Assembly (NCBI RefSeq): GCF_045037415.1
Contig: NZ_CP173438.1
Direction: 5' to 3' (one strand)
DNA length: 64,000 nt
DNA from: Escherichia coli
GTDB lineage: Bacteria; Pseudomonadota; Gammaproteobacteria; Enterobacterales; Enterobacteriaceae
Shown here: piece after piece, positions 48,042-51,000 of the stretch
How positions within the stretch are numbered: position 1 is the first letter of the stretch
Layout of the letters: the number at the start of each line of letters is the position of its first letter
Program-made: the position numbers

Positions 48042-51000
48042 TAATTACACGTTAATTAGTTTTGAATTGAAAAGGGCGCTTCGGCGCCCTTTTTGCATTT
48101 GTTGACTGCATATCTTATTCGTACTGTCAGAACGAATAACTTATTCATATTTAAAATATCAATTCAATTTAATATTTTAAATATGAATGTTTCTGTTTTA
48201 AAAATGCTTCATTTGTCAGGCTTTTTTCTTATTTTTAATGCCGCACTTTAATTCATATTGAAGGGTTCTCGTAAAACGTAAATAATTCCTGCGTAGGACT
48301 TTTGTTTTGCAGTTTTTACGTTACAAGGGATTATAATGAAATTAAATATATTTACTAAATCTATGATTGGTATGGGGCTGGTGTGTTCCTCTCTGCCAGC
48401 ATTGGCAATGGAAGCATGGAATAATCAACAAGGTGGTAATAAATATCAGGTTATTTTCGATGGCAAAATTTATGAAAATGCCTGGTGGGTTTCTTCTACA
48501 AATTGCCCGGGAAAAGCGAAAGCAAATGATGCAACTAACCCGTGGCGTTTAAAGCGTACCGCAACAGCTGCTGAAATTAGTCAGTTTGGCAATACACTTT
48601 CCTGCGAAAAGAGCGGAAGCTCATCTTCTTCAACTTCAAATACGCCAGCATCTAATACGCCCGCTAATGGCGGTTCGGCTACACCAGCACAGGGCACTGT
48701 TCCGTCTAATTCTTCTGTAGTTGCCTGGAATAAACAGCAGGGCGGTCAAACCTGGTATGTCGTCTTTAATGGTGCGGTATATAAAAATGCCTGGTGGGTA
48801 GCCTCTTCTAACTGCCCGGGTGATGCGAAAGGCAATGATGCCAGCAACCCATGGCGTTATGTTCGTGCCGCTACGGCAACGGAAATCTCAGAAACCAGTA
48901 ATCCACAGTCTTGTACTTCAGCACCACAGCCTGCACCGGATGTGAAACCGGCACCGGACGTTAAACCGGCCCCTGATGTTCAGCCAGCCCCAGCTGATAA
49001 GTCAAACGACAACTATGCTGTTGTAGCCTGGAAAGGTCAGGAAGGTTCTTCTACATGGTACGTTATCTACAACGGCAGCATTTATAAGAACGCCTGGTGG
49101 GTAGGCGCGGCAAATTGCCCAGGCGATGCGAAAGAAAACGATGCCAGCAACCCATGGCGTTATGTTCGCGCGGCAACGGCAACAGAAATCACTCAGTATG
49201 GTAACCCAGGCTCCTGTTCCGTTAAGCCGGATAATAATGGCGGTGCTGTGACTCCGGTTGATCCAACTCCGGAAACACCGGAAACTCCAGTTACTCCAAC
49301 TCCGGATAACAACGAGCCATCAACACCAGCGGATAGCAGTAACGATTACTCACTGCAGGCGTGGAGTGGCCAGGAAGGCAGCGAAATTTACCATGTTATC
49401 TTCAATGGTAATGTTTATCAGAATGCCTGGTGGGTTGGTTCTGAAGATTGCCCGCGTGGCACCAGTGTAGAAAACTCCAATAACCCATGGCGTCTCGTGC
49501 GTACAGCTACCGCTGCGGAAATGAGTCAGTACGGTAACCCGACTACCTGTGAAATTGATAATGGCGGCGTCATTATTGTGGATGGTTTCCAGGCCAGCAA
49601 AGCGTATAGCGCGAACAGCATCGTAGATTATAACGATGCACATTATAAAACCTCTGTCGATCAAGACGCATGGGGCTTTGTCCCCGGCGGCGATAACCCG
49701 TGGAAGAAATACGAACCGGCGAAAGCATGGTCCGCTTCCACCGTGTACGTGAAAGGTGATCGCGTTGTTGTTGATGGGCAGGCTTATGAAGCGCTGTTCT
49801 GGACGCAAAGTGACAACCCTGCTCTGGTTGCGAACCAAAACGCCACCGGTAGCAATAGTCGCCCGTGGAAGCCGTTAGGTAAGACTCAGAGCTATAGCAA
49901 CGAAGAGCTGAATAATGCGCCGCAGTTTAATCCAGAAACGCTTTATGCCAGTGATACGCTGATTCGCTTTAACGGTGAGAACTACATTTCTCAGAGTAAA
50001 GTGCAGAAAGTTTCTCCTTCTGACAGCAACCCGTGGCGTGTCTTTGTTGACTGGACCGGAACCAAAGAGCGCGTAGGTACGCCGAAGAAAGCGTGGCCGA
50101 AACACGTTTATGCACCGTATGTCGACTTTACGCTGAATACGATCCCGGATCTGGCTGCGCTGGCTAAGAATCATAACGTCAACCACTTCACGCTGGCGTT
50201 TGTGGTGAGTAAAGATGCGAACACCTGTCTGCCGACATGGGGGACCGCTTACGGTATGCAGAATTACGCTCAGTACAGCAAAATCAAAGCGCTGCGTGAG
50301 GCTGGCGGTGATGTGATGCTGTCTATCGGTGGTGCTAATAATGCCCCGCTGGCAGCTTCCTGTAAGAACGTTGACGATCTAATGCAGCATTATTATGACA
50401 TCGTTGATAACCTGAACCTCAGAGTCCTGGACTTCGATATCGAAGGCACCTGGGTTGCGGATCAGGCATCTATTGAACGTCGTAACCTTGCTGTGAAGAA
50501 AGTGCAGGATAAATGGAAGTCAGAAGGCAAAGATATTGCTATCTGGTATACCTTGCCAATTCTGCCGACAGGCCTGACGCCGGAAGGGATGAATGTCCTG
50601 AGCGATGCCAAAGCGAAAGGTGTTGAGCTGGCGGGTGTGAACGTGATGACAATGGACTACGGTAACGCTATTTGTCAGTCTGCAAACACCGAAGGCCAAA
50701 ACATCCACGGTAAGTGTGCAACGTCTGCGATTGCCAACCTGCATGCGCAGCTGAAAGGCCTCTATGGCAATAAGAGTGATGCAGAAATTGACGCCATGAT
50801 GGGTACCACGCCGATGGTTGGCGTGAACGACGTTCAGGGTGAGGTGTTCTATCTCTCTGATGCTCGTCTGGTCATGCAGGATGCGCAGAAGCGTAATCTC
50901 GGTATGGTTGGTATCTGGTCAATCGCGCGCGACCTGCCGGGCGGCACTAACCTGTCTCCGGAATTCCACGGTCTGACTAAAGAACAGGCTCCGAAGTACG

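Follow-up and report, generated by a model that had tools for sequence, protein, structure and literature searches.

The stretch analysed here, referred to as the window, comprises 64,000 nucleotides of Escherichia coli contig NZ_CP173438.1 (RefSeq assembly GCF_045037415.1), and the element in question is the AT-rich spacer between tufA, the final gene of the str operon, and the chitinase gene chiA. The interval 48045-48335 is the whole of this 291-bp spacer: the tufA stop codon ends at 48044 and the chiA ATG begins at 48336. Gene positions were carried over from the annotated E. coli strain 20377 (NZ_CM190156.1), which is 100% identical gene by gene over hofM...gspC, and the same spacer is found at 100% identity in O25b:H4-ST131 and other strains. 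Downstream of the spacer lie chiA, bfd, bfr and the genes of a type II secretion system (T2SS). The features of the region are as follows.

43637-44011, plus strand: rpsL, start of the local str order rpsL-rpsG-fusA-tufA
46860-48044, plus strand: tufA, final gene of the str operon; 100% match to annotated tuf, codon adaptation 0.80
48068-48095, plus strand: tufA intrinsic terminator with a 12-bp G+C-rich stem, a 4-nt loop and a T run (terminator scan, RNA fold)
48096-48097, no strand: left edge of the strain-variable block, where homology with chiA-less E. coli stops
48097-48485, plus strand: AT-rich tract covering the chiA promoter, the 5' untranslated region (5' UTR) and the first 150 bp of chiA; putative zone of H-NS/StpA nucleation and spreading (composition; H-NS repression in K-12)
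48107-48147, no strand: imperfect palindrome with 20-nt arms, 80% complementary, core TTATTCGT...ACGAATAA (repeat search)
48143-48188, no strand: AT-only palindrome of 46 bp, ATTCATATTTAAAATATCAA / TTAATATTTTAAATATGAAT (repeat search)
48258-48263 and 48281-48286, plus strand: chiA sigma-70 promoter, -35 TTGAAG and -10 AATAAT with a 17-bp spacer, probable start at ~48293 (promoter scan, K-12 start site)
48336-51038, plus strand: chiA (annotation, Pfam PF00704 and PF02839)
51039-51206, plus strand: chiA-bfd spacer, 34.5% G+C (composition, local alignment)
51207-51401, plus strand: bfd (annotation transfer)
51473-51949, plus strand: bfr (annotation transfer)
51978-62615, minus strand: gspO (frameshifted) and gspM-L-K-J-I-H-G-F-E-D-C, the T2SS-alpha operon secreting ChiA (annotation transfer)
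62616-62794, no strand: divergent gspC/gspA promoter spacer, 179 bp, 22.9% G+C (composition; H-NS flag, PMC3946193; SlyA binding, PMC5797941)
62795-64000, plus strand: gspA, continuing past the window end, with gspB and the right edge of the block beyond the window (annotation)

The G+C content (GC) of the spacer is 29.9%, against 51.3% for the whole window. Without the tufA terminator it falls to 27.2% (48097-48335), and over 48130-48260 to 21.4%. The lowest value among all 240-bp stretches of the 64 kb (mean 0.513, sd 0.048) is 24.2%, reached at 48129-48368, and most of that stretch belongs to the spacer; the sole comparable tract in the window is the gspC-gspA spacer. Low GC runs on into chiA, whose first 150 bp have 35% and next 150 bp 45%, with 47-55% thereafter. 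TpA steps account for 10.5% of the AT-rich region against 4.4% window-wide, and ten A or T tracts reach 4 nt or more. An earlier note on this DNA described the region as extremely AT-rich, far more so than the adjoining core genes, and as placed beside the highly expressed str operon, quoting the run ttcatatttaaaatatcaattcaatttaatattttaaatatgaatg, which occupies 48144-48189. These descriptions hold: the flanking str genes have 50-53% GC and the top codon-adaptation values of the window, with tufA at the maximum. Since AT-richness is common to E. coli spacers, the difference from the core genes is in part the usual one between gene and spacer. Among the 30 window spacers of at least 40 bp, the tufA-chiA spacer ranks third lowest in GC; it is distinguished by the length and depth of its AT-richness and is not unique.

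The coding sequence of chiA departs little from the 46 core genes within the window that served as the composition reference. Its GC is 0.500 (z = -1.0; 51.2% from codon 101 on), its third-position GC 0.494 (z = -1.25) and its synonymous-codon fit z = +0.16, with codon adaptation above the core mean, so that the foreign signature in GC and codon usage anticipated by the earlier note largely failed to appear in chiA. The 12 gsp genes are mildly atypical, with a mean GC of 0.493 against 0.526 (p = 1.5e-3) and a poorer codon fit (p = 2.7e-5); the most deviant of them is gspC, at 41.8% GC.

The hairpin that follows tufA (-19.4 kcal/mol, z = -3.6) has the 12 pairs (6 of them G-C), 4-nt loop and T run of an intrinsic terminator, and is kept in the chiA-less haplotype of O157-type strains and in other genera. 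Downstream of it, a promoter scan found TTGAAG and AATAAT at 48258-48286 on the plus strand, their 17-bp separation lying within the 16-18 bp of sigma-70 promoters. For K-12, primer extension and 5' rapid amplification of cDNA ends place the chiA start site at 3467918 (PMC3950696). The K-12 chiA ATG stands at 3469853 in NC_000913.3. Between the K-12 sequence versions lies an offset that we take to be 1,978 bp, and the published start coordinate fits only the earlier version. Because this offset is itself a reconstruction, the start can be placed in the window only conditionally: it would lie 43 nt upstream of the ATG, at about 48293, 7 nt past the -10. The listing of constitutive RpoD promoters in PMC3946193 contains none for chiA. 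In the relative L092, with a ChiA 76% identical, TATTGAA is kept at the -35 and TAAATAATT at the -10, and the neighbouring DNA, including the palindrome, is not conserved.

The promoter of K-12 chiA (also yheB) occupies the same locus, between the same neighbours tufA and bfd. The two spacers differ at 7 of 291 positions (284 identical, 97.6%), which leave the -35, the -10 and the start site unchanged; one of the seven substitutions makes the AT-only palindrome more perfect here (19/20 against 18/20). The encoded protein, a periplasmic or secreted GH18 endochitinase-lysozyme with a CBM5/12 domain, has 900 aa here and 897 aa in K-12. An Rfam scan of 47800-48700 (E up to 1) returned no known RNA element, its single hit being a chance match to SraG at 19.8 bits against a gathering score of 50. 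Small open reading frames inside the spacer (30-52 aa), which overlap the terminator and the palindromes, gained no support.

In K-12 the chiA promoter is repressed by H-NS, and chiA mRNA, measured by quantitative reverse transcription PCR, stands in an hns stpA mutant at the level produced by constitutive BglJ (PMC3950696). BglJ-RcsB activates chiA, yet no BglJ-RcsB box was identified there (PMC3950696). Negative control by H-NS and H-NS occupancy of K-12 chiA are credited to Francetic, Badaut, Rimsky and Pugsley (2000, Mol Microbiol 35:1506), as cited in PMC3950696 and, for the negative control, also in PMC5797941. The gspC-O genes are transcribed as a cryptic unit under H-NS repression. SlyA activates this unit and binds the 179-bp spacer between gspA and gspC in an electrophoretic mobility shift assay, and chiA is described as 'another H-NS silenced gene' (PMC5797941). 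Genomic SELEX (systematic evolution of ligands by exponential enrichment) flagged the gspA/gspC spacer as H-NS bound, and located in the chiA/bfd spacer a constitutive RpoD promoter of bfd-bfr with no H-NS flag (PMC3946193). The window shows what is expected of a promoter silenced by H-NS and StpA, namely an AT-rich stretch of several hundred bp over the promoter (27.2% in the spacer past the terminator and 24.2% at its lowest, against 51.3%).

We put at roughly 85% the probability that the region is the published H-NS-silenced chiA promoter, situated at the left edge of a strain-variable chitinase/T2SS block, and thus a real, ordinary and already explained feature. The silenced chiA and T2SS locus that had been proposed from this sequence is corroborated by the K-12 experiments, in both H-NS repression and hns stpA derepression, and was already known; the silencing of chiA and T2SS-alpha by H-NS is a well-studied case, rediscovered here. 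The chiA and T2SS-alpha genes are textbook 'cryptic' genes of E. coli, and their accessory status and links to adhesion and virulence, as in adherent-invasive E. coli (AIEC) and mastitis strains, are part of the literature.

Several observations pull in the other direction. The published high-affinity H-NS motif tCGATAAATT has no match with up to two mismatches in 48097-48335; its closest matches, at 48467 and 48495, lie inside chiA, and the window as a whole shows no excess of the motif (71 matches, where 60 +/- 8 are expected). The motif is not obligatory for H-NS silencing, and, because it is missing from the spacer, H-NS binding would rest on general AT-rich, narrow-groove DNA. The spacer is only about 1.5-2 sd more AT-rich than the other spacers of the window, and the body of chiA is compositionally native, unlike classic xenogeneically silenced genes. 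Finally, the action of H-NS is carried over from K-12: that it operates in this strain in the same way is an analogy resting on the 97.6% identity of the spacers.

The silencing of the locus may be pictured as follows. Transcription of the str operon would stop at the strong hairpin terminator at 48068-48095. Beyond it, a TpA-rich tract of about 390 bp, from 48097 to about 48485 and of 24-35% GC, spans a weak sigma-70 promoter and the 5' UTR and reaches 150 bp into chiA. A filament of H-NS and StpA on this tract, which we infer to extend from about -195 to +190 relative to the start site, would occlude the promoter and keep chiA off in laboratory conditions, and counter-silencers such as BglJ-RcsB would relieve the filament and turn chiA on. 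The export machinery encoded by gspC-O and gspAB would be held off likewise at the second AT-rich spacer, 62616-62794. Three separate transcription units would thereby come under common control, with bfd-bfr, which lies between them, expressed independently. The block itself would most likely have entered E. coli, or have been exchanged within it, through homologous recombination in the ultra-conserved flanks.

The promoter resembles other counter-silenced promoters of E. coli (bgl, leuO, yidL, hlyE and gspC-O, under BglJ-RcsB, LeuO or SlyA) in its AT-rich promoter DNA, near-silence in the wild type and high expression in hns stpA mutants. Within this group the activators differ, being BglJ-RcsB for chiA and SlyA for gspC-O. 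Having no identified box, chiA also differs from the other targets of BglJ-RcsB, and its activation may be an indirect form of anti-silencing. The downstream operon corresponds to the E. coli T2SS-alpha (gspAB/gspC-O), which agrees with it in gene content and gene order and likewise is linked to chiA, both being present or absent together across strains; this system is given as the secretion route of ChiA by Francetic, Belin, Badaut and Pugsley (2000, EMBO J 19:6697), as cited in PMC5797941, PMC11390585 and PMC3707838.

Of the 5,426 complete E. coli genomes surveyed for the locus, 3,148-3,163 (58%) have the tufA-chiA junction or spacer, always in single copy, while a short form, tufA-bfd'-bfr'-(155-aa prepilin peptidase gene, hopD)-rpsJ, occurs in 2,256 (~42%), for example in O157:H7. 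On the left, both forms are identical through 48096, the last base of the terminator tail, and the reciprocal O157 query stops at the same point. On the right, as seen in K-12, identity resumes 184 bp ahead of rpsJ, at the TATAAT -10 of the promoter of that gene (S10 operon). Between these edges the K-12 form spans about 16.6 kb (chiA-bfd-bfr-gspO..C-gspAB, measured in K-12) and the O157 form 1.5 kb. The bfd-bfr genes of the two forms are 77-78% identical at the nucleotide level, and Bfr about 90% at the protein level; the flanking fkpA, yheO, tusDCB and fusA are 97.2-99.4% identical. Because bfd-bfr diverge so much further than the 97-99% flanks, at least one of the forms represents a xenologous replacement of the whole interval and not a simple insertion of chiA or gsp. 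The variable unit is thus the entire tufA-to-rpsJ interval, bfd-bfr included. In a pan-genome study of mastitis strains, gsp, chiA, bfd and bfr were scored as accessory with identical strain frequencies (PMC11390585); the 'accessory' label of bfd and bfr follows from the extent of the variable unit. We also note that the DNA preceding the -10 of the rpsJ promoter, a major promoter of ribosomal-protein genes, differs between the two haplotypes. In 13 complete genomes the spacer is only 80-90% identical to that of the window, possibly a third haplotype or strains of cryptic clades.

The reading of chiA and gsp as an acquired module, put forward in the earlier note, stands in part. A strain-variable block with sharp edges and a discordant bfd-bfr speaks for it; the GC and codon signature of chiA speaks against it, and the gsp genes deviate only mildly. 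The unit named there was also too small: chiA and gsp are both variable, and so are bfd and bfr between them. The block shows the patchy strain presence and phylogenetic discordance of a classical island and lacks an atypical composition of its genes. No tRNA gene was found in 40000-64000, and the annotation of the block lists neither an integrase nor a transposase, the only insertion sequence (IS) being a strain-specific one in gspK of the reference genome (strain 20377). A tRNA target, an integrase or transposase and convincing flanking direct repeats, the usual hallmarks, are missing from the block. Classical xenogeneically silenced islands, such as the Salmonella pathogenicity islands, are alike in forming an accessory, H-NS-repressed block with sharp borders beside core genes. 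Unlike them, the present block is AT-rich only in the regulatory spacers and at the 5' ends of chiA and gspC, its gene bodies having about 50% GC, and it is bordered by a ribosomal operon on either side, by the terminator of the first and the promoter of the second.

To place the two forms among relatives, species-representative genomes were scanned with Bfr and the neighbouring genes sought by tblastn; the outgroups came from genera other than Escherichia. Two genomes taken from lower-identity HopD clusters in the search for non-coli Escherichia both proved to be E. coli, one of them an error-rich assembly. The following layouts were found.

tufA-bfd-bfr-rpsJ: Pantoea, Erwinia, Xenorhabdus, Proteus, Providencia, Serratia
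The same with a short HopD-like peptidase gene: Kluyvera, Silvania, Pluralibacter, Raoultella, some Citrobacter, O157-type E. coli
The same with a full T2SS and no chitinase gene found: Citrobacter braakii, Citrobacter amalonaticus, Chimaeribacter, Rahnella
The same with T2SS genes (mostly full) and a chitinase gene between tufA and bfd: UBA5654, Kosakonia oryziphila, two Trabulsiella, Enterobacter sichuanensis, L092, Yokenella

The short form was probably inherited vertically and the chiA-bfd-bfr-gsp block imported, as far as the sequence comparisons go. The O157-type bfd-bfr is 85-87.5% identical to that of Citrobacter, while the K-12 type reaches at most 82-83.5% to anything sampled and is farther than the O157 type from every sampled genus. 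A neighbour-joining tree built from Bfd+Bfr (222 columns, 26 taxa, 500 replicates) groups the K-12 type with UBA5654 and L092, both of which have chiA and T2SS at the locus, at 95% bootstrap; the O157 type sits among Citrobacter and typical Enterobacteriaceae, where the species tree would place it. In 0 of the 500 replicates are the two E. coli types sisters. The opposite polarity, in which chiA-bfd-bfr-gsp is the original state of E. coli and the short form was imported or derived, is in our estimate unlikely, though it is the best of the alternatives that we weighed. It draws on the presence of a T2SS at exactly this site in Rahnella, Chimaeribacter, Citrobacter, Enterobacter, Trabulsiella, Kosakonia and Yokenella, several of these genera having GH18 genes between tufA and bfd, on the native composition of the chiA body, and on internal diversity that is at the E. 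coli level in both forms (96-100% in the chiA form, 94-100% in the short form). It would also make a gspO remnant of the short peptidase gene, which has the same place and orientation. That peptidase, however, is only 41% identical to GspO, which rules out a recent deletion product, and its graded similarity to Salmonella HopD (66-68%) and to Citrobacter (60-67%) looks vertical. This alternative must also accommodate the position of the K-12 type outside the typical Enterobacteriaceae in the tree and its greater distance from each sampled genus. The importation of the block is in turn qualified by two points. No close donor was found among the sampled genomes (best bfd-bfr 82-83.5%), and the occurrence of T2SS and chitinase in the same slot of many Enterobacterales makes ancient residence with repeated loss possible.

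The AT-rich spacer alone is no evidence of acquisition. All chitinase genes found in the slot (E. coli, UBA5654, Kosakonia, two Trabulsiella and Yokenella) have 25-31% GC in the upstream 300 bp and 45-52% in the body, and their upstream sequences are mutually unalignable. The slot gene of Yokenella regensburgei is a non-orthologous 888-aa GH18 with beta/gamma-crystallin and inhibitor-I36 domains, and its upstream DNA has 26% GC, with 16% in the lowest 150 bp. Because the combination of an AT-rich upstream region and a normal body recurs in five lineages besides E. coli, AT-richness appears as a maintained regulatory property and not just a donor signature, and the recurring AT-rich promoters fit selection for nucleoid-protein control over unameliorated foreign DNA. 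For annotation, an AT-rich spacer beside a gene of normal composition is to be read as a regulatory signature, which proves nothing about foreign origin. We tentatively suggest, at somewhat less than even odds, that the interval between the tufA terminator and the rpsJ -10 is an exchangeable cassette site in Enterobacterales, at which the T2SS, GH18 cargo with its own AT-rich, H-NS-ready promoter, and bfd-bfr move as one block by homologous recombination in the flanking operons, two of the best conserved in the genome. Several lineages carry an orthologous chiA as the cargo of the site, and the tufA 3' end is ~94% identical between genera. Were this true, the textbook bacterioferritin of K-12 would be a xenolog brought in with a secretion system. 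As it stands, the 'reference' bacterioferritin, that of K-12, is the allele of the form that goes with chiA and gsp.

The AT-rich tract also contains palindromes, one of which the earlier note had quoted as a 'run'; its symmetry is recognised here. The AT-only palindrome has arms at 48143-48162 and 48169-48188 that are complementary at 19 of 20 positions, consist of A and T only and are separated by 6 nt; its centre lies about 127 bp upstream of the chiA start. Dinucleotide-preserving shuffles of the tract never exceeded 17/20 (0/1000). The imperfect palindrome at 48107-48147 is weak as an RNA hairpin (z = -1.85). The 9-mer ATTCATATT has 5 copies in the window against 0.68 expected, an expectation that is window-wide and underestimates chance in locally AT-rich DNA. 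Four copies are arranged around chiA, at 48143-48151 (plus), 48180-48188 (minus), 48251-48259 (plus, abutting the -35) and 51111-51119 (plus). A 12-bp direct repeat, TTATTCATATTT, brackets chiA at 48141 and 51109 (19/2000 shuffles). Its candidacy as the insertion scar of a chiA cassette was rejected by the empty-site alignment: the spacer of chiA-less strains aligns with the part of the chiA-bfd spacer that begins at 51091 (score 53, the best shuffle reaching 41) and has no significant alignment with the tufA-chiA spacer (24 against a mean of 23.6). From about 51091, then, the chiA-bfd spacer and the tufA-bfd spacer of strains without chiA are homologous, and the former carries the bfd promoter. 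Operator function, H-NS nucleation, a tendency to form cruciforms, or chance in the evolution of AT-rich sequence could each account for the palindromes and repeats.

If the two palindromes and the ATTCATATT copies bound a specific transcription factor, they would constitute the real chiA switch, and H-NS only its background. Symmetry beyond the reach of shuffling, the placement of the 9-mer and the activation of chiA by BglJ-RcsB without a recognised box (PMC3950696) lend this idea some appeal, and six E. coli strains keep the AT-only palindrome, K-12 showing a single change. Such conservation carries little weight at a species identity of 97-100%. The palindrome was not seen in the nearest chiA-bearing relatives compared, outgroups that keep the core promoter; neither it nor the motif was matched to a known factor; and mutation of a predicted motif ~150 bp upstream of the K-12 chiA start left BglJ-RcsB activation unchanged (PMC3950696). 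With the excess of the 9-mer inflated by its window-wide expectation, we consider a dedicated operator array improbable.

It is very unlikely that the AT-only palindrome, as an AU-only RNA hairpin followed by GUUUCUGUUUU, serves as a back-up terminator that keeps str read-through out of chiA. Its stability as RNA (-15.2 kcal/mol, z = -5.7), the U-rich run that follows it on the plus strand and its position 48 nt downstream of the main terminator would suit that role; its stem, however, has no G-C pairs, the terminator scan reports only 48068-48095, the hairpin on the other strand is equally stable, as in any palindrome, and relatives do not have it. Least probable is that the spacer merely has the usual terminator-plus-promoter composition of E. 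coli and says nothing about silencing or origin: other spacers of the window, between core genes, match it in AT-richness over shorter lengths (pabA-argD 29.4%, nirC-nirD 31.7%, trpS-yhfZ 34.8% GC) and the chiA body is normal, but this spacer contributes the lowest-GC 240 bp of the 64 kb, with low GC reaching into the coding region, the one tract of the window that equals it is the second spacer of this system under H-NS control, and H-NS repression of exactly this promoter is published for K-12.

The organisation of the T2SS genes offers nothing new apart from gspO (51978-52650, minus strand), in which a 5-bp deletion relative to K-12, near 52323 in a TGGCTTGGCT repeat, leaves 673 bp in place of 678 and shifts the frame; the frameshift is also annotated in strain 20377. 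Secretion of ChiA through this T2SS may be defective in this lineage, and export may be impaired whatever the state of silencing, to judge from the reading frame.

The chiA gene itself varies among strains. A second allele class, seen in GCA_040884085.1, encodes 799 aa; its first ~445 nt are divergent or shortened and the remainder is 98.8% identical. The upstream spacer of that allele is essentially unchanged (99.2%); the mosaicism lies in the N-terminal chitin-binding part. In E. coli NZ_OZ040994.1, an IS1 occupies the AT-rich 5' end of chiA (equivalent to ~48470-48485) and leaves a 45-codon N-terminal fragment annotated as hypothetical. In UniProt, CHI11_METAN, named 'Endochitinase 11' and assigned to the fungus Metarhizium anisopliae, shares 86% identity with E. 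coli ChiA across 57% of its length and looks like a bacterial contaminant entered under a fungal name.

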